In this document: piece by piece, positions 3,118 through 40,557 of the stretch | Layout: each line of letters begins with the position of its first letter | How positions within the stretch are numbered: the first letter of the stretch is position 1 | From: Candidatus Aenigmatarchaeota archaeon | GTDB taxonomy: Archaea; Aenigmatarchaeota; Aenigmatarchaeia; QMZP01 | Assembly (NCBI GenBank): GCA_026397335.1 | Contig: JAPLVB010000048.1 | Coordinates: 136-64,135 of the forward strand | Direction: 5' to 3' | Length of the DNA stretch: 64,000 bases | Program-made: the position numbers and the translations under genes | Notes under the pieces: model-generated | The model's database searches: none | What the model was told of the DNA's origin: nothing | What the model saw: the letters and a program-made list of their open reading frames with translations, nothing else

Positions 3118-3314
3118 ACTGCTGGAATGACGGCTTGTATCAATTGGGCCAAGCCGTCCATCGAACTGTGCTGGAAAGAAGGCGGCTCCGCCACCTTCAA
3201 TCGGATACCGGGCAGTAAAAAATCTTATTTATAGAACAGAATCAAAATATAAAGCTAAATAATATCTGAAATTATATAAATTGACTAAATTAATCTTTAG
3301 GTTGGGATGCAAGG

Positions 3315-5278: not shown

Positions 5279-5350
5279 TGATTCACTTAATAAATGTGCG
5301 GGAATTTGTACCGTTATAAAATATAAATGCATAAACTAGATTATTAGAAG

Positions 5351-5388
5351 GAAGGTGGTTGTAATTAGTTGGTTAGGAACCACCTTCA
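5351..5388. repeat. GAAG-hairpin repeat copy R2: GAAGGTGGTT-N18-AACCACCTTC followed by aattag
   Basis: Seen directly; ends 19 nt upstream of the gatD ATG. Confidence 0.7.
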
Positions 5389-5407
5389 ATTAGACATCGT
5401 GAATGGA

Positions 5408-6769: not shown

Positions 6770-6792
6770 GTCATAAAGTTATAGTCTTACAC

Positions 6793-6856
6793 GAAGTTGG
6801 CGAAGCCAACTTCTCCGTTAAGTCGCGAATAGCGAATGAAGGCGTGAAACGCCTTC
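6793..6856. repeat. Two tandem repeat copies, R3 GAAGTTGGC-GAA-GCCAACTTC and R4 GAAGGCG-TGAAA-CGCCTTC
   Basis: Seen directly. R4 ends 35 nt upstream of the HD-gene ATG and is followed by tatatcaaat. Confidence 0.8.
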
Positions 6857-6891
6857 TATATCAAATCGCGCATTGTTGCAAGGCGAAAGGC

Positions 6892-12002: not shown

Positions 12003-14279
12003 ATGCGGTCGGGTGGAGGTATGGATAATACGCAAATCAAGGTTGATGAGCCTAGGAAGAATGAATGCGAAGCTTACCGGGTAGTTTTGCTGGACGGGGA
12101 GAGGAAAAAAGGCGAGATCAAAGACGTCAGGATTGTAAGGCTGGGCGGCCCAGAAAATAGGTATGTGAAAAGGGAGCCAGGGAAGGACAAATCGGCGGAA
12201 GGCGCTGCGCAGCGCCTTCAATCGAAGGTCGCGGTTCCTGAAATTCCAAGGGCAGCGGCTGTATCCAAAAAAAAGGGCGGCGTGCGGGTAATAGATTTGA
12301 AGAAGGCTTCCGAGAAGGAGGCCGAGAAGGCGAAAGCGAAAGCGGATTCTAAGGCAGAGGAAGAGAAGCGTCTCAGGCGCGATTTGAACAATTCCATAGC
12401 AGAGGGCTCATTCACAACCGCATCAAGCAGCATAGTAAGCTCCTACTCAACCCCCTTTGCGCTGGCGCTTAATGCCTCCAACTCTGAAATCGGGATTCTG
12501 AATTCCGTCCAGAACCTTGCCGGAATTCTTTCGCAGCTTCCTGGCGCAAGGCTCACAAAAAGCATGACCAGGAAAAAAATCTGGGTAATGTGCACCATCC
12601 TTTCCAGGCTGTTCCTGATACCGCTTATATTCATAGGGCTCTTCGCACCTTCCACAGAGATATGGCTGCTGATAATTCTCCTTGGGATGGTTGGCTTCTT
12701 TAGCAGCATGAGAGGGCCCGCATGGTCAAGCATGATGGGCGACCTCGTGCCTGTGGAAAGGAGAGGAAGATACTTCGGCAAAAGGAACATGATAATAGGG
12801 TTTGCAGGCATGGTTGCCACGCTTGGGGCAGGAGCTGCCGTATTCTACTTTGGGTTTCCTGTGATTTTTGGAATAGCCGTTGTCCTCACTTTCATATCCA
12901 TAATATTCTTTTTGCGCATAAGAGAACCAGAACTTAAACAGGAGAGAGAATATCACTACAGGCTGCATTTCCACCCGAGCGATTTAATCTACCAGATAAA
13001 GACGAACAGAAATTTCGCAATCTTCACCATCTACATGACTGTGGTGAACTTTGGTGTCAATATAGCGTCACCCTTTGCTGCTGTATATATGCTCAAGAAC
13101 CTGGATATAGGTTACGCATGGTTTGCAGTGCTGGTTACAATAGGCGCTCTGGCCCAGCTGCTTTCAATGAAATACTGGGGAAACAGGTGCGACAATTACG
13201 GGAACCGCAAGATCCTTGTGATATCCGGAATCCTGATATGCTTCGTTCCCCTAGGCTACATGCTTTCCACGAATGTTTTCCATCTTATACTCCTGAAGGT
13301 ATATGACGGGTTCGTATGGGGCGCTTTCGACCTGGTGGTGTTCAACTACCTGCTTGCCGTCACGCCTTCAGAGAAGAGGCCCGGATTCGTGGCAAACCAC
13401 AATTTCATTACAGGTGCGGGAACTGTCACAGGGGCGTTATTCGGGGCATTCCTGGCCCAGCAGTTCGAAACAAGCAGCTTCATGCTGTTCTATGGCCTCC
13501 AGCTGGTATTCCTGATATCCTTCATCCTCAGGCTAAGCTCCATATCCTTCCTGTCCAGGATAGCAGAGGTGGAGAAGAAGGAGAGCGAGCGCATTCCTGT
13601 GAGATATGTGTTCTGGGACACGGTTGCAATAGGCCCTGCAAAGGGAGTGGAGCATGCCGTGAGCAGCGCCTTCCGCTACCCTTACGGGGTTAAGATTAAA
13701 AGCAAGCTCGGACTAAATAATAACAGAAAAATAAAGCTCTCAACAAAAAAATTTGAGTCAGGGAACTCGCAAAAGCAGCGAATGAAGGTGAACGAAAGAA
13801 AGAAGGTGGAACTGGAGAACGAGACACCTTCAGGCAATAAGCCACCTTCAATCACAAATCACGTTCCAGCGAAGGTGTTTGATCATATAGGTGTCCTTCC
13901 GGTTAAAAAGCAAAAGATTGCGGGCGGATTCAGTCAAGAAAATGGGGTGTTTGAAATGGTATTAGGCAATAGGCAAAAACAGAAATCTGATGATAGAAGC
14001 GAATATGTTGAGCTTGGACTTGAGAGGCAGGCTCCCAAAACAGCGAAGATAGTGGTTCACCATCTCCAGAGGTTCTCGGAGACGGACAAGATTGTGAAGA
14101 GTATCCGCGCGAAAAACATTGTTTTCGTGGGGCTCAAGACCATGAAGCAGACCAATCTGGACGAGCTCAAGCAGGCAGTCGCAAAGATAAACAGGGCATG
14201 CATAGAGAACGGCTCGAACCTTTCGCTCGTGGAGGAGGAGTGGCTGATAATCACGCCTCAGACGGCGGCGATTGTTTAA
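12003..14279 (+). CDS. Fusion ORF joining a multi-pass (about 10-12 TM) transporter-like membrane domain to a SepF-like (DUF552) cell-division domain. The N-terminal ~187 codons are doubtful and a plausible alternative start is at 12564.
   Basis: The TM-rich core carries a GDLVPVERRGRYFG segment that resembles an MFS loop 2-3 motif, but this is weak. The last ~80 aa (KIVVHHLQRFSETDKIVKSIRAKNIVFVGL...WLIITPQTAAI) match the SepF core pattern. The linker at 13784-13855 contains a degenerate repeat copy. An in-frame ATG at 13782 could start a stand-alone 166-aa SepF if an unseen frameshift or stop exists. Confidence 0.5.
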   Translation: MRSGGGMDNTQIKVDEPRKNECEAYRVVLLDGERKKGEIKDVRIVRLGGPENRYVKREPGKDKSAEGAAQRLQSKVAVPEIPRAAAVSKKKGGVRVIDLKKASEKEAEKAKAKADSKAEEEKRLRRDLNNSIAEGSFTTASSSIVSSYSTPFALALNASNSEIGILNSVQNLAGILSQLPGARLTKSMTRKKIWVMCTILSRLFLIPLIFIGLFAPSTEIWLLIILLGMVGFFSSMRGPAWSSMMGDLVPVERRGRYFGKRNMIIGFAGMVATLGAGAAVFYFGFPVIFGIAVVLTFISIIFFLRIREPELKQEREYHYRLHFHPSDLIYQIKTNRNFAIFTIYMTVVNFGVNIASPFAAVYMLKNLDIGYAWFAVLVTIGALAQLLSMKYWGNRCDNYGNRKILVISGILICFVPLGYMLSTNVFHLILLKVYDGFVWGAFDLVVFNYLLAVTPSEKRPGFVANHNFITGAGTVTGALFGAFLAQQFETSSFMLFYGLQLVFLISFILRLSSISFLSRIAEVEKKESERIPVRYVFWDTVAIGPAKGVEHAVSSAFRYPYGVKIKSKLGLNNNRKIKLSTKKFESGNSQKQRMKVNERKKVELENETPSGNKPPSITNHVPAKVFDHIGVLPVKKQKIAGGFSQENGVFEMVLGNRQKQKSDDRSEYVELGLERQAPKTAKIVVHHLQRFSETDKIVKSIRAKNIVFVGLKTMKQTNLDELKQAVAKINRACIENGSNLSLVEEEWLIITPQTAAIV
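12198..12219. repeat. Repeat copy R6: GAAGGCGCTG-CG-CAGCGCCTTC (perfect 22-nt palindrome) followed by aatcg
   Basis: Seen directly. It lies inside the annotated N-terminal extension of the ORF at 12003-14279. Confidence 0.75.
13784..13855. repeat. Degenerate repeat copy R7 inside the transporter-SepF linker: gaaggtgaacgaaagaaagaaGGTGG...CACCTTC...ccaccttcaatca
   Basis: Near-identical to 24904-24950 (gaaggcgaacgaaagaaagaaggtgcacagcaccttcaatcg). Confidence 0.6.
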
Positions 14280-22824: not shown

Positions 22825-22855
22825 TGTTTGCACCGCTCAAAATTTCTTTTTGCTC

Positions 22856-22874
22856 GAAGGCGTGAAACACCTTC
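22856..22874. repeat. Repeat copy R8: GAAGGCG-TGAAA-CACCTTC (loop as in R4; one C.A / G.U position)
   Basis: Seen directly; lies 31 nt upstream of the V-PPase ATG on the minus strand. Confidence 0.7.
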
Positions 22875-23077
22875 TTTCCAAGCTTTGGGTTAAAATTGGA
22901 GGTTAGGCTTATAAAAGTTACGGCAGGGGACGGATTCTTAAACAGATTTCTTCCTTGCGTTCCAGTAGACAAAGCTCCCCAGAATTAGAATCATGAGTAA
23001 AGAGAGCCCGTAAAATACAGGTGGGTTCGCAATGAGCATCCCCACAAGGTCTGTTTCTCCTGCCATGGGAATCACAA

Positions 23078-29554: not shown

Positions 29555-29902
29555 TTATTGATGGTTACTTTATTCCTTTATAAAGCTTTCTCCAAGGGAA
29601 TCCTCACTTCCCTCTTTTGCCTTGGGTAAATCCTTATTAAAATGCTTACCATTGGGGGCAGCTTTTTGCCGTTCCTATAGACAAATCCCTCAAAATCGCT
29701 ATCTATCACCTCTATTTTGTCTCAAGAGAAGCTTCCCTTCCACTAAGGGGTCAAATTTCAGGGAACCCTCACTCTAGTGTCTAAAAGTCATTTTATAAAA
29801 TATATTATATAAAGAATATTTATAAAAATATAATATAAAATAGATATTTTTGAATAGTATATATTTTATAGATATAATTAAAAATGGTTAAAATAAAATA
29901 TA

Positions 29903-30485: not shown

Positions 30486-31064
30486 TCAGAACAAATCGCC
30501 CATTATCTTCTCATAGCTTTTCTGCACGGAATCCATGCTAGGCGTTCCATAAACGTCTATGGTTGTCTTTATGGAAGAATGTCCGAGTATCTTTTGGACC
30601 TCCTCCATCCTCATCCCTTTCTCCAGCATCATCCTGGCGAAGGAGTGCCTGAAAAGATGAGGATTGATGCATTTCTTGGCAGGGTTTGGGTGATTTACCC
30701 CAGCTCTTTGGCCGCATTTTGCCACTATTTCATTGATTTGCTTAAGGGAAATGGTGCTCTGCTTGTTGCTTATTATGAGCTTGCCGGATGACCTGTCCCC
30801 TAGATAGAACTTAATATCCTGAAGGGTATCGGAATCTACAGGCACAGTCCTGCTTTTGTCTCCTTTGCCGCTCCTTATGTATATCCTTTTCTTTCCGAAA
30901 TCGACATCCTTTATGGTGAGATCCCGGAGCTCGAACCTTCTCATTCCTGTCCTGGCAAGTATCTTTATTATAACCCTATCCCTGAGGGAAGAAGCACACA
31001 AGATAATTTTCCCTATGTCTTCCTTTGCCAAATAATAGAAAGACTCCTTTGCAGCTTCTGACAT
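30486..31064 (-). CDS. Tyrosine recombinase/integrase, short catalytic-domain-only form of about 192 aa
   Basis: ARTGMRRFEL (box I Arg), KGDKSRTVP (Lys), HLFRHSFA (H-x-x-R) and LGHSSIKTTIDVYG (His...Tyr nucleophile). No N-terminal core-binding domain. Confidence 0.8.
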   Translation of the reverse strand: MSEAAKESFYYLAKEDIGKIILCASSLRDRVIIKILARTGMRRFELRDLTIKDVDFGKKRIYIRSGKGDKSRTVPVDSDTLQDIKFYLGDRSSGKLIISNKQSTISLKQINEIVAKCGQRAGVNHPNPAKKCINPHLFRHSFARMMLEKGMRMEEVQKILGHSSIKTTIDVYGTPSMDSVQKSYEKIMGDLF

Positions 31065-31259
31065 GTATTAAATTACGTTACACTTATTTATAAAGGTTAC
31101 GTTTTAGTTACACTTTATAAATTAATGTTACATATAAAGTTACAAAATATACATTCTGTAACGTTTTCTATAGAGAACATCTTTTGGAAGGTACTCAATA
31201 ATCAGGAGGCTAGCTTCCTAAGCTAAACTACCCCAGAAAACGCGATTTGCTCTTGGAAC

Positions 31260-31631
31260 CTAAGCGGCGACTTTCTTCTCTTCCTTTCCGGGCTTTGGCT
31301 GCTTCTTCTTATCTTCCTTTGCTGCGTTCTCCTCTATCTGGGAGAACTTCTTTATCATTGCCTCCACATTATGCGCTATGTCCCAGCCGTCATCCGTGAG
31401 TATGACCTTCTTTATGCGGCCCTGCTTATCGAATTTAACTATGCCCAGGTTCCTGAAAGCGTTTAGGATCTTTATTGTGTGCGAATACGTACAATCAGAT
31501 TCCTTGGCCAGAATAGTCGCATAAACGGGCTTATCCTTGCCGGTTTTCAGGCCCATGAGAATCCTTGCCGGCTTCTCCCTAAGAAACAAATCCTCTAACA
31601 TCCGGTTTTGTGGCATAGTTCTCATCTTCAA
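31260..31631 (-). CDS. Winged-helix DNA-binding protein with a lysine-rich C-terminus
   Basis: wHTH-like segment YATILAKESDCTYSHTIKILNAFRNLGIVKF. Confidence 0.45.
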   Translation of the reverse strand: MKMRTMPQNRMLEDLFLREKPARILMGLKTGKDKPVYATILAKESDCTYSHTIKILNAFRNLGIVKFDKQGRIKKVILTDDGWDIAHNVEAMIKKFSQIEENAAKEDKKKQPKPGKEEKKVAA

Positions 31632-31945
31632 TTTTCACAATAATTTTATGTATTTGTATTATATAAATGTTTCGTTTCTTATTTCATATAATATAGTTTA
31701 TAAAGTATTCTTTATTTATAATATAATAAAATAGATATTATATAAAATAGTTATTTAATTAGAATTATTAAAATATAGTTATTTTAATATATATTATTAA
31801 GTAGTATATTTTTAATCCTCACGGCCAAAGTGAGAGTTCCTTCCAAGAATGGCCCAATAAGGTGAGAGAGATGTTTCACGAGAGAATAGGGTCAATACAT
31901 ATCGGTTTATATAATAATCTCCCTAAGGGCGTAGATTCTAGGATA

Positions 31946-32977
31946 TCAGCCCTTCCACTCCAGCAGAATGGCTGCGAGTAGCAGGACGAATCCCAGGATT
32001 ATTGAGAGGATAAAACTGATTTCAGTGGCAGCAGGGTTCAGGATCATGTCTGTGGCACTATATGCTACCAGGGTTATTGCGAATCCGAACAGAGGGATGG
32101 CAGCTATCTTCCTGGAGCGCTTCTTCTTCACGTTCACGTTTCTGCCTATCCACGGTATCGTGCCCGCGAGGAAGAACAGATATACAGAGTGGGATATGAA
32201 CTCGGCCGCGACATTGATTATGCCTAGGTTCAGGGCTTCTATGGCATGGGAATAACCCCTGTAAGCGGCAAATATAGCCATAGCAATTCCAACCACATAT
32301 CCGAAGAATGCGAATCTTCTGTGATTGAAGGAGTCCTCGAATTCCCTCATCATTCTGAGAACATATGTGTCAAGCTTGAATCCCCTTATGAAAAGATAAA
32401 CACCCACAACCCCGAGAATGAGCCTCCATCCCTCAAAACCGAATATAGCATAGATGATAAGAACGACAGCAGGAATGCCGAAGAGCAGGCGCGAGACCTT
32501 GGGATATTCCAGTGTCTCATGCACGAAGTCCTTTACCTTGAAATAGACGGACTGGAGCTGGTCAGCCTGCCTCACCACGACCCTTTTCACGGAAAGTATG
32601 GGGACCCTGGACTGGATTACAGGCATAACACGCTCATCCTCGCTGCCGTCTGTAACAAGCACAGCAAAATTGGCCTCAAACCTGGAAAGAACGCTCTTCA
32701 GCTGCTCCCCTATTATGCGGTCTGACTTTATCCCAACATCCCTGTCTCCTGTAATAATCGCGATTTCCACGTTATACTGCTTTCTCATTTCGTCATACAC
32801 CTTCACTGTCTGGAAAATCCCGTTGAAGTCAGAGGATTCAGGGTCTTTAAGACCCATATCTATGCCTGTCTTCAGGACGCTATCCCTCCCGATAATGGGG
32901 CCTTTGACTGATATTTTCTGGCCTATGTCATTGTCCCTGTCCACGTTCAAAACCAGAATCTTGTCTGTGGATTTCAT
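31946..32977 (-). CDS. DUF373-like archaeal membrane protein (soluble N-domain plus about 6 C-terminal TM)
   Basis: Architecture and N-terminal ILVLNVDRDNDIG-type segment; family assignment is from memory. Confidence 0.45.
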   Translation of the reverse strand: MKSTDKILVLNVDRDNDIGQKISVKGPIIGRDSVLKTGIDMGLKDPESSDFNGIFQTVKVYDEMRKQYNVEIAIITGDRDVGIKSDRIIGEQLKSVLSRFEANFAVLVTDGSEDERVMPVIQSRVPILSVKRVVVRQADQLQSVYFKVKDFVHETLEYPKVSRLLFGIPAVVLIIYAIFGFEGWRLILGVVGVYLFIRGFKLDTYVLRMMREFEDSFNHRRFAFFGYVVGIAMAIFAAYRGYSHAIEALNLGIINVAAEFISHSVYLFFLAGTIPWIGRNVNVKKKRSRKIAAIPLFGFAITLVAYSATDMILNPAATEISFILSIILGFVLLLAAILLEWKG

Positions 32978-33013
32978 GCTTAGAATATGGGGTTGGGGTA
33001 TAAAAAGGTGAAA

Positions 33014-33616: not shown

Positions 33617-33621
33617 AAAAA

Positions 33622-33770
33622 TGGGGCCATCGAGATTTGAACTCGAGTCTAGAGCTGATTTGCGAAAGAAGTCGGAATTGCGTTAGAAGGTGCTCATGCG
33701 CCTTCATTCTCACGTTCCGACTTCAAACGTCCCGAAGCTCTGATGCTAGACCAAACTACACCATGGCCCC
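33622..33770 (-). tRNA. tRNA-Pro(CGG) with a 74-nt intron at the canonical 37/38 position. Exons are 33731-33770 and 33622-33656; the intron is 33657-33730. CCA is not encoded.
   Basis: Hand-folded. Acceptor GGGGCCA/TGGCCCC (7 bp) with discriminator A. T-arm TCGAG-TTCAAAT-CTCGA. Anticodon stem AGAGC/GCTCT with loop TTCGGGA (U33, anticodon CGG, G37). The D-arm is imperfect (GUGU/GCAU with wobbles). The 5-prime half resembles archaeal tRNA-Pro (GGGGCC.TGG.GTAG..TGGTCTA). Confidence 0.65.
33669..33724. repeat. Nested repeat copy R12 forming the tRNA-Pro intron: outer GAAGTCGGA/TCCGACTTC enclosing GAAGGTGC-TCAT-GCGCCTTC
   Basis: Seen directly; flanked by cgaaa and aaacg. Confidence 0.8.
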
Positions 33771-33781
33771 GATTCACGAAA

Positions 33782-33803
33782 GAAGGTGTCTCTTGACACC
33801 TTC
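33782..33803. repeat. Repeat copy R13: GAAGGTGTC-TCTT-GACACCTTC (same loop as R1; one compensatory C-G to T-A change)
   Basis: Seen directly; 11 nt upstream of the tRNA 5-prime end and preceded by cgaaa. Confidence 0.8.
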
Positions 33804-33818
33804 ATTTTAAGGTTCGAA

Positions 33819-33836
33819 GGTATCGCTTGCGATACC
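33819..33836. promoter_or_regulatory. Perfect palindrome GGTATCGC-TT-GCGATACC in the divergent spacer between the tRNA and the aminotransferase gene
   Basis: Seen directly; function unknown (candidate operator). Confidence 0.2.
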
Positions 33837-33889
33837 CCTGACTATCCCTTAAAGGATTGTTAATATAGAGAAGGGAACAATATTAATAC

Positions 33890-35188
33890 ATGGCTAAAAA
33901 GCCCCTGAAATCCGAGTCAATTCTGAAAAGGGATTCAAGGGTTATTTCTCCTTCTTACACCCGGAGCTACCCGCTTGTGATAGAGAGGGGAAAGGGGATT
34001 TACATATGGGATGTGGACGGGAAACGTTATCTTGACTTTACATCAGGGATTGCGGTCGCGAACGTGGGCCATTCGAATCCCGAGGTCGTGAAGGCGATTC
34101 GCTCGCAGACAGAGAAAATCCTGCACAATGCAGGGACGGATTTCTATAACGAACCGGCTGTTGCACTTGCGGAAAAGCTATGCGAAATAACCCCGGGAAG
34201 CTTTTCCAAGAAGGTCTTTTTCGCGAACTCGGGGACAGAGACAGTGGAGTGCGCGTTCAAGCTCGCGCGCTGGTATACGAAAAAACCCCGCATGATATCG
34301 TTCCTGGGGGCCTTCCACGGCAGGACTTTCGGGAGCATGACCCTTTCCTCCTCAAAGCTCACACACAGGGACCATTTCAGCCCGCTTGTTCCAGGGGTGG
34401 ATTACGCTCCTTTCCCCTACTGCTACAGATGCCCGCTCGGGAAGAAAGAGAAATGTGAGAAGGAATTCTCCTGCCTGAGTTACCTTGGAACGCAAATCCT
34501 CAAGAAGGTTGTCCCGCAGGATGAGCTTGCAGGAATTATAGTGGAGCCCATACAAGGAGAAGGTGGATACATAGTTCCACCGGACGGCTTCCACAAAGAG
34601 CTCCAGAAGCTCTGCAGGGAAGAAGGTTGCCTTTACATCATGGATGAGGTGCAGACAGGATTCGCAAGGACCGGGAAGATGTTCGCCTCCCATGTTTTTG
34701 GCGTGGAACCGGACATAATCTGCGTTTCAAAAGCGATAGCAGACGGGCTTCCCTTGGGAGCATGTGTGGCTAAAAGCGAGATAATGTCCTGGCCAAGGGG
34801 AGCGCATGCCAACACTTTTGGTGGTAATCCCCTTGCGTGTGTGGCAGGCCTCACTGTTATCGACTACATCCAGAGGGAAAAACTCTATGCCAAGGCGGAG
34901 AAACTTGGGGAATTCGGAAAGAAATACCTTAAGGACCTCATGCAGGAGCACAAGATAATAGGGGACGTCCGAGGGAAAGGGCTCATGCTTGCCGCGGAGC
35001 TTGTCAAGGACAGGAAGACTAAGAAACCTGCTTTTCAGGAAGTGGAGAAGATTGTGAACACGTGCTTCAAGAACGGGCTGCTCCTGCTCACTTGCGGCTA
35101 CTCCACAGTCCGGTTCATCCCACCCCTGATTATTGAGAGAGACGAGTTCGAGCGTGGGCTGGAGATTTTCGCGGATACCCTAAAATAA
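33890..35188 (+). CDS. Class-III PLP-dependent aminotransferase (acetylornithine/4-aminobutyrate aminotransferase family)
   Basis: Full-length fit to the family: SGIAVANVGHSNPEV, GTETVECAFKLAR, DEVQTGFARTG, and a SK region around the Lys. Confidence 0.85.
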   Translation: MAKKPLKSESILKRDSRVISPSYTRSYPLVIERGKGIYIWDVDGKRYLDFTSGIAVANVGHSNPEVVKAIRSQTEKILHNAGTDFYNEPAVALAEKLCEITPGSFSKKVFFANSGTETVECAFKLARWYTKKPRMISFLGAFHGRTFGSMTLSSSKLTHRDHFSPLVPGVDYAPFPYCYRCPLGKKEKCEKEFSCLSYLGTQILKKVVPQDELAGIIVEPIQGEGGYIVPPDGFHKELQKLCREEGCLYIMDEVQTGFARTGKMFASHVFGVEPDIICVSKAIADGLPLGACVAKSEIMSWPRGAHANTFGGNPLACVAGLTVIDYIQREKLYAKAEKLGEFGKKYLKDLMQEHKIIGDVRGKGLMLAAELVKDRKTKKPAFQEVEKIVNTCFKNGLLLLTCGYSTVRFIPPLIIERDEFERGLEIFADTLK

Positions 35189-39141: not shown

Positions 39142-40557
39142 TTAGGATTTCTTCTTGTCAGGCTTTTTTGCAGGCTTGGATTTTTCCTTATCAGGCTCCT
39201 TGATAGATGGAAGTTGTGAAGCAGCTTCTTTCGAAGGTCGTTCCTCTTCGTGCTCTATCTCATCCTCCAGCTCCTCTTCCTTCTCTTCCACCGTTTCCCT
39301 GTTCGCGTAGTTTTTCACGGAGAGCTGGCCACCCGCGAACCTGCTGCTGGCCGCGAACTTTGCCATGAACGTGCTGAAAATAACAGTGAGTATTATCACA
39401 ACCACGACCATGTTCATTATGCTGGCCGCGGCAGCGCCGAGGTTTGCTGCTATAAGGGCGGCAGCCACTATGGGAGCCATTGCAGCCGCGTCTATTCCCC
39501 TTGGGGCCACGAAGCTCATGACGAATCTCTCCTGTTTTGTGTAGTTCTTCCTTTCCTTGCCAAGAATGATGTTTACAAACAGCGGCCTTGCAAGCACGAT
39601 GGCTATGAAGAAAAGCAATATCGGGATGATGTCGGATAGGCCGAAAGTGAGAGTCACCTGCGCCCCAAGGAATGTGAAGACTGCAATCCTCAGCATCTCG
39701 GAGAAGTGGTCGTCAAACCTCTTCACATCATCCTTCTCCTGGAATCCCATGTCTCCTACTATAAGCCCACAGATAGCCACGGCCAGGATTCCGGAGCCGC
39801 CCACGTATTCGGACGCGGCATACGTGAGGAGGGCTATGGAGAGCATGAGCAGGACCGTGTAGTCTTGGGCCATCCTTTTTACAAGCTTGGAAAAACCCAA
39901 CCCGAGAATTATTCCCGCGCCAACTCCAGCCACCATCATCAGCACGAATTTGGAGAAGTAAGCCATAGGCTCGATTATGGCTCCGGGCTGGATTGACACG
40001 AAGTCAAGGAAGACAAGGGGTATCAGAATGCACATGGGGGAGTTGAAAACCGCCTCTGTTTTTAGCATGGTCATAACGCGCCTGTAATCCTTGTCCAGAA
40101 TGGAGTCGAAAGTGAATATTATCGCGTCCGCGGTTCCGCTCAGGACGCCTCCGAGAAGGAGCGCGAACACCCAGTCGATGCCGAATATGAAATGTGCCGC
40201 AACTCCGAGAATTATTGTATTAAAAGCAACCCCCAATACCGCGAACTTGACCGAAATTCCGGAGGTCTTCCTGAAGGAGCGGAGTCCCACGTTGAACATT
40301 CCCGCGAACACTATCATTATCAGGGCAAGTATCCTGAGGAAGTCGGGGACGGCTCCCATCGCGCTTATGCTGACAGGCTCTATCTTCATGTATTGGGCTA
40401 TAAATGGGTTTCCCAGAATAGTTGGGCCCAGCAGGAGCCCCAGAAGTATCAGGAATATGCTGTCGGGTATATTCCTCTTCTTGAAGAAGTTTGCCAGCAG
40501 CACGCCAAGCCCGAGCAGTATGGCGAAATATGTTATAGCTATTAAGGCATCGCTCAT
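39142..40557 (-). CDS. Na+/H+ antiporter (CPA1/NhaP type) with an acidic, lysine-rich C-terminal tail
   Basis: 12-13 TM layout with CPA1 motifs (FFLPPIIF-like, ILFGGV..SGTADA). Confidence 0.85.
   Translation of the reverse strand: MSDALIAITYFAILLGLGVLLANFFKKRNIPDSIFLILLGLLLGPTILGNPFIAQYMKIEPVSISAMGAVPDFLRILALIMIVFAGMFNVGLRSFRKTSGISVKFAVLGVAFNTIILGVAAHFIFGIDWVFALLLGGVLSGTADAIIFTFDSILDKDYRRVMTMLKTEAVFNSPMCILIPLVFLDFVSIQPGAIIEPMAYFSKFVLMMVAGVGAGIILGLGFSKLVKRMAQDYTVLLMLSIALLTYAASEYVGGSGILAVAICGLIVGDMGFQEKDDVKRFDDHFSEMLRIAVFTFLGAQVTLTFGLSDIIPILLFFIAIVLARPLFVNIILGKERKNYTKQERFVMSFVAPRGIDAAAMAPIVAAALIAANLGAAAASIMNMVVVVIILTVIFSTFMAKFAASSRFAGGQLSVKNYANRETVEEKEEELEDEIEHEEERPSKEAASQLPSIKEPDKEKSKPAKKPDKKKS

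Follow-up and report, generated by a model that had tools for sequence, protein, structure and literature searches.

A tRNA-Pro(CGG) gene of an uncultured archaeon with a predicted intron made of two nested copies of a dispersed hairpin repeat

Precursor tRNAs that carry the bulge-helix-bulge (BHB) motif, in which two 3-nucleotide (nt) bulges are separated by a 4-base-pair (bp) helix and for which relaxed forms are also defined (PMC5829648), are the standard substrate of the archaeal splicing endonuclease EndA (PMC5829648, PMC4090602). The origin, movement and loss of archaeal tRNA introns has long been an open question. In the Thermoproteales, 'transposition' of introns from one tRNA gene to another has been described, its mechanism being unknown (Fujishima et al. 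2010, as summarised in PMC4090602), and in Caldiarchaeum subterraneum both the gain of a tRNA-Thr intron and gene splitting were attributed to a mobile element (Sugahara et al. 2012, PMC3293823), a 1.8-kb sequence predicted to encode a recombinase (PMC3293823). In DPANN archaea, EndA variants go together with heavily disrupted tRNA genes, and incomplete tRNA sets have been reported for DPANN genomes (PMC5829648). Here we analyse a 64-kb stretch of DNA (the window, whose numbering is used throughout) from a metagenome-assembled genome (MAG) labelled Candidatus Aenigmarchaeota (DPANN), in which a tRNA-Pro(CGG) gene on the minus strand (33622..33770) carries a predicted 74-nt intron at the canonical position 37/38, filled by a hairpin repeat that is dispersed through the window.

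The element resembles a canonical 37/38 BHB intron, cut by EndA and joined by RtcB, in its position, its extension of the anticodon stem, its modelled bulges and its flanking helices; it differs in that its central helix has three of four pairs and its body is two nested copies of a genome-wide repeat, not private sequence. Whereas the related sequences in the Thermoproteales, as presented in the summary in PMC4090602, are introns of other tRNA genes, here most of them are hairpin repeats between genes, and it is in a single orthologous gene, compared across relatives, that the changes occur. The likeness to Caldiarchaeum lies in population-level heterogeneity of intron content at one tRNA locus, ascribed to a mobile element, but the units here are non-coding hairpins of ~45-49 nt without an identified mobilising enzyme. 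Our search of the literature, incomplete in coverage and therefore weak evidence, brought up no published tRNA intron composed of a hairpin repeat that is dispersed between genes.

With its intron search switched on, ARAGORN called a tRNA-Pro(cgg), c[33622,33770], that is interrupted at the canonical site by an intron of 74 nt. The Rfam tRNA model (RF00005, relaxed filters) covered the locus over its full length with a score of 41.7 bits (E = 8.7e-8; gathering score 29) and accommodated the intron in the anticodon loop, as an insertion of 78 nt. An earlier reading of the letters (the original prediction) had named this gene, its coordinates and a 74-nt intron at 37/38; gene and coordinates proved exact, the ARAGORN intron was identical in sequence to the one it gave, and the intron-aware search that it had proposed recovered a gene that default mode misses. 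Neither ARAGORN in default mode nor Rfam at its gathering threshold with default filters reported an RNA gene anywhere in the 64 kb, and the only other Rfam match with relaxed filters was a chance mir-5911 (13.6 bits against a cut-off of 84). ARAGORN with introns found no second tRNA in the window, and none other was found in the related loci L001-L003 (L-numbers denote related loci from Aenigmarchaeota-labelled MAGs and metagenomes; slashes join loci counted as one version, and equals signs join independent assemblies that agree). That default tRNA finders miss the gene fits the incomplete tRNA sets of DPANN genomes (PMC5829648).

On the minus strand the locus reads GGGGCCATGGTGTAGTTTGGTCTAGCATCAGAGCTTCGGG, 74 nt and AGCTCTAGACTCGAGTTCAAATCTCGATGGCCCCA, followed by TTTTT, and is divided into exon 1 (33731..33770; tRNA positions 1-37, with the anticodon CGG at 33732-33734), the intron (33657..33730; called by ARAGORN and folding as an independent extension of the anticodon stem) and exon 2 (33622..33656; positions 38-73). 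CCA is not encoded, the discriminator is A73, and the TTTTT at 33617-33621 follows it directly. Removal of the insert restores the cloverleaf of a standard tRNA in both ARAGORN and RF00005. The D arm, earlier described as pairing poorly, in fact has four pairs in the ARAGORN drawing (G10.U25, U11-A24, G12-C23 and U13.G22), which are invariant in 14 close-relative versions of the gene. The full precursor has a minimum free energy (MFE) of -61.1 kcal/mol (z = -5.2 against shuffles), and in its fold the acceptor stem is intact and the intron forms a long extension of the anticodon stem.

The comparative set comprised 14 distinct versions of the tRNA gene, that of the window included, and two outgroups, found through a neighbouring aminotransferase gene and through an invariant stretch of 29 nt; ingroup versions were tabulated and outgroup loci were read directly. 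The neighbour (33890-35188) is a class-III aminotransferase gene divergent from the tRNA. Its product is 100% identical to a protein that NCBI lists for a 'Candidatus Aenigmarchaeota archaeon' MAG and is assigned by NCBI to the acetylornithine aminotransferase family, with relatives annotated by JGI as 4-aminobutyrate (GABA) aminotransferase; this acetylornithine/GABA-type identity replaces that of HemL, which we had considered. Its synteny with tRNA-Pro(CGG) is kept down to 62% protein identity, making it a useful anchor for finding this tRNA. A 22-nt exon 1 pattern had no exact match in the GTDB genome collection because the A27 of the window is private, while the 29-nt pattern common to the relatives was matched in metagenomes. 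The first 29 nt of the tRNA are identical across the 14 versions and the exons are nearly invariant. At 27:43 the window pairs A-U; L003, L081, L082, L083, L085 and others have G-C, and L001, L002 and L084 have G.U, a compensatory change which argues that the gene is under selection. The locus is a real and probably functional tRNA-Pro(CGG) gene of an uncultured archaeon.

The repeat that fills the intron belongs to a family well beyond chance, with 13 GAAG..CTTC hairpins of at least 8 pairs in the window, where 100 dinucleotide shuffles gave 0.46 on average and never more than 3. Its unit is an imperfect palindrome of about 45-49 nt with the wider flanks, the canonical strand reading approximately CGAnnnnnGAAA-GAAGGYGnn-loop-nnCRCCTTC-AATCGAnAnTCG and the inner and outer stems being set apart by tandem A.A mismatches. 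A covariance model (R1), built from 12 dispersed copies with everything near the tRNA left out of training, has as its marks an 8-10-bp GAAG...CTTC stem and flanks of ..GAAA on the 5' and AATCG.. on the 3' side. It gave ~20 distinct matches in the window at E<1e-4. Nearly all copies of the family are intergenic, and at four sites (13784, 24904, 33668 and 57058) one unit lies within the loop of another. Two copies that seem to be inside an open reading frame (ORF) of 758 aa (12003-14279) sit before and between the genes for a major facilitator superfamily (MFS) transporter and SepF, the ORF being a chance in-frame read-through of the two; the nested hairpin at 13784-13849 occupies the in-frame spacer between them. 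Another copy (22856) lies upstream of an H+-PPase domain. At six of six co-directional intergenic sites, including 3164-3212, 5337-5401, 6779-6870 and 13788-13863 on the plus and 22842-22888 on the minus strand, the flanking genes read in the sense of the unit's canonical strand (GAAA-GAAGG..CCTTC-AATCG), which could hint at an RNA-level role or at strand-biased insertion. We considered the dispersed copies as BHB elements or excisable introns in their own right and set this aside, as direct reading shows long imperfect palindromes with symmetric 2x2 A.A mismatches. The only family copy possibly in coding sequence is a weak R1 match (39196-39242, 22.6 bits) in the last ~33 codons of a Na+/H+ exchanger ORF (39142-40557, minus strand), past its Pfam domain.

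Bacterial repetitive extragenic palindromic sequences and interspersed mosaic elements (REP/BIME), as well as repeats resembling miniature inverted-repeat transposable elements (MITEs), are short, non-coding imperfect palindromes that occur in many copies between genes, vary in presence between relatives and are often nested or clustered. In general terms the present family is likewise short, palindromic, intergenic, nested and variably present; it differs from REP/BIME sequences in being archaeal and in its conserved GAAG...CTTC stem base and tandem A.A (or U.U) flank mismatches. No partner of the RAYT/TnpA type was seen in the 64-kb window, and we know of no case of REPs inside a tRNA intron.

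Within the intron, R1 detected an inner unit with its flanks at 33672..33719 on the minus strand (stem GAAGGCGC/GCACCUUC at 33686-33705), with 26.9 bits (E = 1.6e-6) on the minus strand, that of the tRNA, and 20.5 on the plus strand. In family orientation this unit is sense to the tRNA, and it is nested in the loop of an outer unit (33668..33724, plus strand; GAAGTCGGAA...TTCCGACTTC, 10 bp) that is antisense to the tRNA, with flanks gcgaaa and aaacg read on the plus strand. R1 is unable to span a nested insert, so that the outer unit is invisible to it. After in-silico removal of the inner unit, however, the healed sequence (GAAGTCGG-AATT-CCGACTTC with flanks gcgaaa/aaacg) scored 13.0 bits on the plus strand against a sequence-only hidden Markov model (HMM) of the family, whose seed copies scored 14.6-32 bits, and it surpassed every one of 200 shuffles of the whole sequence (highest 1.7) and of 200 shuffles of the flanks only (highest 9.9). 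The outer unit is also homologous to the single-unit introns of L081 and L086 described below. By sequence, then, the intron is two family units in opposite orientations, one within the other. Nesting and GAAG..CTTC flanks (gcgaaaGAAG / CTTCaaacg on the plus strand) are as the original prediction described them, and the connection it drew between a dispersed repeat and tRNA-intron biology holds in the R1 matches of the inner unit and of a further unit in the leader, in the HMM match of the outer unit and in the single-unit introns of L081 and L086.

The splice sites were threaded on the BHB definition of PMC5829648. In this model the exon strand of the central helix (U32 U33 C34 G35; 33733..33736, minus strand) pairs with the intron strand CAAA (intron positions -6 to -3; 33659..33662, minus strand) as U-A, U-A, C.A and G-C. 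The 5' splice-site bulge, G36 G37 | A(i1) (33730..33732, minus strand), has its predicted cut at 33731/33730 and is closed by the Watson-Crick pairs G35-C(-6) and C(i2)-G(-7), and the 3' bulge, U(-2) C(-1) | A38 (33656..33658, minus strand), has its predicted cut at 33657/33656 and is closed by the Watson-Crick pairs C31-G39 and U32-A(-3). The outer helix h is the 5-bp anticodon stem AGAGC/GCUCU; the inner helix h' starts with C-G and G-C, passes through a UUU/UUU internal loop and continues as the 10-bp stem of the outer unit, which is thus itself part of the splicing motif. Both h and h' have at least 2 bp, as archaeal BHB introns require. With three of four central pairs and with the bulges GG|A and UC|A four positions apart, the modelled BHB is relaxed, not strict. 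The earlier reading had failed to draw a strict one, which is indeed absent, but a relaxed BHB with two 3-nt bulges and a single C34.A mismatch can be drawn.

Threading gives one and the same frame for the window, L001, L003, L081, L086 and L093: the outer helix has 5 bp, three of the four central pairs form, the 3-nt bulges are GG|N and YC|A, and there is an inner helix. A second intron of the relatives, in the T loop, threads on this frame with all four central pairs in L083 and L001 and with three in four others, so that imperfect central helices appear normal in the lineage, in introns that it evidently keeps. The parts that would matter for splicing are all found in the model: the 5-bp anticodon stem, the central helix of U32-G35 with the intron's 3' tail, the two 3-nt bulges bearing the cut sites and the two G-C pairs that start the inner helix. 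An endonuclease would excise the whole insert, and an RNA ligase would restore the loop UUCGGGA. The element very probably is, and works as, a canonical archaeal BHB intron in relaxed form, and we consider it likely that the 37/38 intron of the window is spliced. Two further candidates were rejected by direct reading, namely a 38/39 splice register, which would give the same product since i1 and position 38 are both A but offers no acceptable helix, and a functional small RNA in the intron, for which no C/D-box-like motifs were seen.

Closely related archaea hold this one orthologous gene in at least five intron states. The 37/38 intron is lacking in L083, L084 and L085 (loop GGAGCTTCGGGAGCTCC). 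It consists of a single family unit of 37-38 nt in L081 (CCGATTGAAGTAGGCATGGCCTGCTTCTTTCGAGAATC; R1 24.5 bits, E = 1.3e-6) and in L086/87/88 (ACAATTGAAGGCGGCGAAGCCTCCTTCTTTGAGAATC; R1 22.2 bits). The nested two-unit design occurs in the window and in L001 (flank identity to the window 76%), where the inner unit scores 36 bits with R1. An unrelated intron type beginning A-GGCCTTTCTTTAC... is found in L093 (28 nt), L003 (80 nt) and the outgroup L096. A compound layout, GGAGC-TT | insert | CGGG | TGCTCCCAGCCGTGGGGCAGAATC | AGCTCC, occurs in L002, L082, L089/90, L091/92 and L095, its insert between U33 and C34 being family hairpins: a 49-nt insert with one clean hairpin in L091/92 (31.3 bits, E = 1.5e-8 with R1), nested hairpins in L082 and more in L002. 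The 24-nt piece of this layout is a conserved mini-intron at 37/38, which in L002 carries a further unit in its loop, and the order TT, insert, CGGG, mini-intron and A would split these tRNA-Pro genes into three or four exons, the middle one of 4 nt. For the 33/34 site, threading gives an HBh'-like motif with a GAGC/GCUU central helix and bulges UU|G and AA|C, for which no outer helix was found on the 3' side. In all, R1 recovers units inside the introns of L001, L002, L081, L082, L086 and L091/92.

The T-loop intron (51-64 nt at 59/60) is present in 10 of the 14 versions (L001, L003, L081, L083-L085, L089-L095) and absent from the window, L002, L082 and L086. ARAGORN with intron search returned nothing in the two-intron loci L001 and L003 and miscalled L002 as tRNA-Arg(gcg). 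All 37/38 intron types, those outside the family included, have in common a 3' tail (A/C)G(A/G)A(U/C)C that pairs with U32-G35.

The MAG origin of the window, together with the known tendency of repeats to cause misassembly, raises the question of whether short-read misjoins or a collapse of repeat copies placed hairpins in the tRNA gene. The hairpin-bearing versions, however, derive from samples and assemblers that are independent of one another, several recur unchanged in more than one sample, as in the pairings of versions across independent assemblies (L086=L087=L088, L089=L090, L093=L094), and the exon-intron junctions keep the BHB frame in each; an artefact of this kind is scarcely credible.

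The polarity of these states comes from the outgroups. L096 and L098/99, with aminotransferase identities of 70% and 62%, have both the 37/38 and the T-loop intron and an uninterrupted GGAGCTTCGGG. Searched with R1 at E<0.1, outgroup and other loci totalling 48.7 kb gave no copy of the family, and nearly every ingroup locus searched gave copies. Introns in outgroups that are free of family copies place the 37/38 intron site, by sequence comparison, before the repeat family, a polarity given by two outgroup loci only; the neighbour-joining (NJ) tree used alongside is of a single gene, the neighbouring aminotransferase. As both outgroups are uninterrupted at 33/34, the insert there, made of family hairpins, is derived, and de novo insertion is its best reading. 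Intron-less alleles are most simply losses, and at 37/38 the likeliest course is that the repeat took over or replaced the body of an intron already there, with the splicing-critical ends kept. Over 1.6 kb of flanking sequence L003 is 96.7% identical to L095, but the anticodon-loop intron layouts of the two are wholly different. Whole intron alleles thus appear to have been replaced among close relatives, for which recombination through the invariant exons is the presumed route.

The original prediction had offered two origins, insertion of the repeat into the anticodon loop or descent of the family from a tRNA intron, and neither fits 37/38 as stated, the intron site being older than the family. 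Insertion is less likely there than colonisation but is the best reading for the 33/34 insert of five relatives; outgroups that have the 37/38 intron and no family copies speak against descent. A version of the latter in which excised intron RNA was copied back into DNA and then spread would explain why a flank ...CG(A)GAAUC is common to dispersed units and intron, and the older-type intron of L003 does contain a GGAAGGC..GCCUUUCC hairpin. Yet dispersed units are complete with both flanks, whereas one flank of the intron is replaced by exon sequence; both unit orientations occur inside the window intron; the family is absent from the intron-bearing outgroups; the dispersed copies show no BHB on direct reading; and the window encodes no reverse transcriptase. 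We regard this origin as very unlikely.

On balance we favour the explanation that the element is the BHB intron of a functional tRNA-Pro(CGG) gene, its body taken over by a lineage-specific hairpin repeat through colonisation or replacement of an older intron. An ordinary, protein-spliced BHB intron would have pre-existed at 37/38, and the repeat, otherwise intergenic, would have occupied its body; the antisense outer unit would have come to serve as h', and a second, sense unit would have been inserted in its loop. Inserts here would be tolerated, as splicing discards whatever lies between the two bulges. The family is present as well in the presumably transcribed 5' leader of the gene; relatives carry it in the trailer on the 3' side, within other introns and, newly inserted, at 33/34.

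Several observations weigh against this explanation, some of them against splicing and others against takeover of an older intron. The C34.A mismatch in the middle of the central helix is the only defect of the motif. The unconstrained MFE fold of the window precursor does not contain the BHB, and forcing it costs 6.0 kcal/mol against 2.9-5.6 in five orthologues, a scale uncalibrated on proven substrates. Neither EndA nor RtcB is encoded within the 64-kb window. The mismatch and the highest forcing cost among the six orthologues would also suit a dead gene, in which insertion and mismatch block splicing and another tRNA reads CCG. The exons, however, are undamaged and include the compensatory A27-U43 pair, both bulges are closed by Watson-Crick pairs, L001 keeps the nested design despite the divergence of its flanks, the putative promoter boxes and the oligo-T after A73 are intact, and there is no other tRNA in the 64 kb, and we therefore think a dead gene quite unlikely.

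As to takeover, intron types are scattered on the neighbour-gene tree and do not follow it, L081 and L086 retain almost no recognisable remnant of an older intron, and a unit may possibly have been re-inserted into an intron-less allele after loss, such alleles existing in L083-L085. Target duplication is inconsistent, with TCTAAA at one site and none at 37/38, and no transposase, other mobilising gene or reverse transcriptase was found among the ~50 window ORFs scanned. A rival account is de novo gain, in which a unit was inserted exactly between positions 37 and 38 of the intact loop of an intron-less allele, was spliceable by chance because its own arm (…UCGAGAAUC) pairs with U32-G35, and received the inner unit later. 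Besides the scatter on the tree and the intron-less ingroup alleles (L083, L084 and L085), this gain is favoured by the introns of L081 and L086, which amount to one complete unit plus a single leading base and match R1 end to end, and by the derived 33/34 family inserts of five relatives, with a single unit in the 49-nt insert of L091/92. Against it, the outgroups and the L003/L093 lineage have an older-type 37/38 intron, which makes intron presence ancestral; the 3' tail common to all types is what retention of an existing BHB frame would give; and no target-site duplication flanks 37/38. De novo gain at 37/38 is, in our judgement, a serious but rather unlikely alternative to colonisation of an older intron.

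How a unit fits the anticodon loop can be followed by direct reading of its right arm, which in tRNA sense is ...CUUC-UUUCG-AGAAUC. Its UCG pairs with the CGA that opens the intron (in h'), its AGAA pairs with U32 U33 C34 with a G35.A mismatch, and its UC forms the 3' bulge together with A38. In a free-standing unit the same right arm pairs with the unit's own left arm (CGAUUCUCGA), so that the anticodon loop of tRNA-Pro(CGG) substitutes for the missing left arm. This fit may reflect targeting, microhomology-mediated insertion or mere selection among many insertions.

At the DNA level, units are also present at some orthologous sites in one locus and absent in another. The window has ~90 extra nt with a nested unit at 24.87-24.96 kb, with TCTAAA on both sides where L001 has a single CTAAA; L003 has an insert of ~85 nt (GAAGTAGGC...GCCTACTTC) downstream of the tRNA that is absent in the window; and leader and trailer inserts vary among loci. 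Direct reading also suggests a possible TCGGG duplication at the leader site of L084.

An identifiable high-copy hairpin repeat that fills tRNA introns, and probably creates one, gives the question of intron origin a concrete lead, and whether a non-coding palindromic repeat can make a spliceable intron becomes testable. We suggest, tentatively and as a conjecture that we ourselves would rather doubt than assume, that the repeat is a mobile element generating and remodelling archaeal tRNA introns, its stable inner helix and loop-pairing arm (…UCGAGAAUC) providing an instant BHB. The single-unit introns of L081 and L086 and the 33/34 inserts of L091/92 and four others would then be newborn introns, intron alleles would subsequently be exchanged by recombination through invariant exons (L003 versus L095), and a mechanism of archaeal tRNA intron gain would be directly observable.

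The leader of the gene contains a family unit at 33768..33817 on the minus strand (stem 33782-33803; R1 33.5 bits, E = 6.9e-9) that ends ...CUUCUUUCGUGAAUC directly before tRNA +1, where L083 and L003 have no insert. The end of the unit reads ...UUUCGUGAAUC|G+1 and the leaders of several relatives end AGAAUC|G, so that the terminal GATT of the unit (antisense) abuts the boundary of the mature RNA in the leader as it does in the intron. Leader and intron tails are alike, and we considered cutting of the leader by the splicing endonuclease; this was rejected on account of G1, which is paired in the acceptor stem. Further upstream lie two non-family hairpins (33819..33855, minus strand), GGTATCGCAAGCGATACC at 33819-33836 and CCTTTAAGGG at 33846-33855, which fall within the ~83 nt that are present in the window and absent in L083 and L003. 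Beyond them, two boxes conserved in close relatives (33858..33891, minus strand), CTATATTAACA at 33858-33868 and an A/T-rich box at 33879-33891 that overlaps the start codon of the divergent aminotransferase gene, presumably act as promoter. Where relatives have no leader inserts, the distance from the A/T box down to tRNA +1 is ~27-40 nt, a spacing that makes a transcribed leader of ~85-90 nt probable for the window. On the 3' side, L081, L089 and L091/92 have a family hairpin GAAGGTGTC...GACACCTTC in the trailer ~11 nt after A73, and other loci have an oligo-T tract directly after A73. With units in both leader and trailer, the ends of the mature tRNA are bracketed by the repeat.

The only recombinase in the window is encoded on the minus strand, ~2.5 kb from the tRNA, by a tyrosine recombinase gene at 30486-31064 (Phage_integrase, 6e-35). 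The gene falls in a stretch (30486-33008) that aligns with L001 and is therefore probably chromosomal (XerA-like), not a recent integration. The gene is flanked by very A+T-rich stretches (29790-29870 and 31646-31803; GC ~0.36) rich in long imperfect AT palindromes. Neither the tRNA 29-mer nor a hairpin-unit pattern had a match in a viral contig collection. In the outgroups L096 and L098/L099, upstream of the tRNA body, the first 13 nt of the tRNA (GGGGCCGTGGTGY) occur twice, ~80-95 nt apart, and the 3' acceptor strand of L096 is matched by the upstream copy alone; the duplication could represent a further intron near position 13 or an att-like mark of an integrated element.

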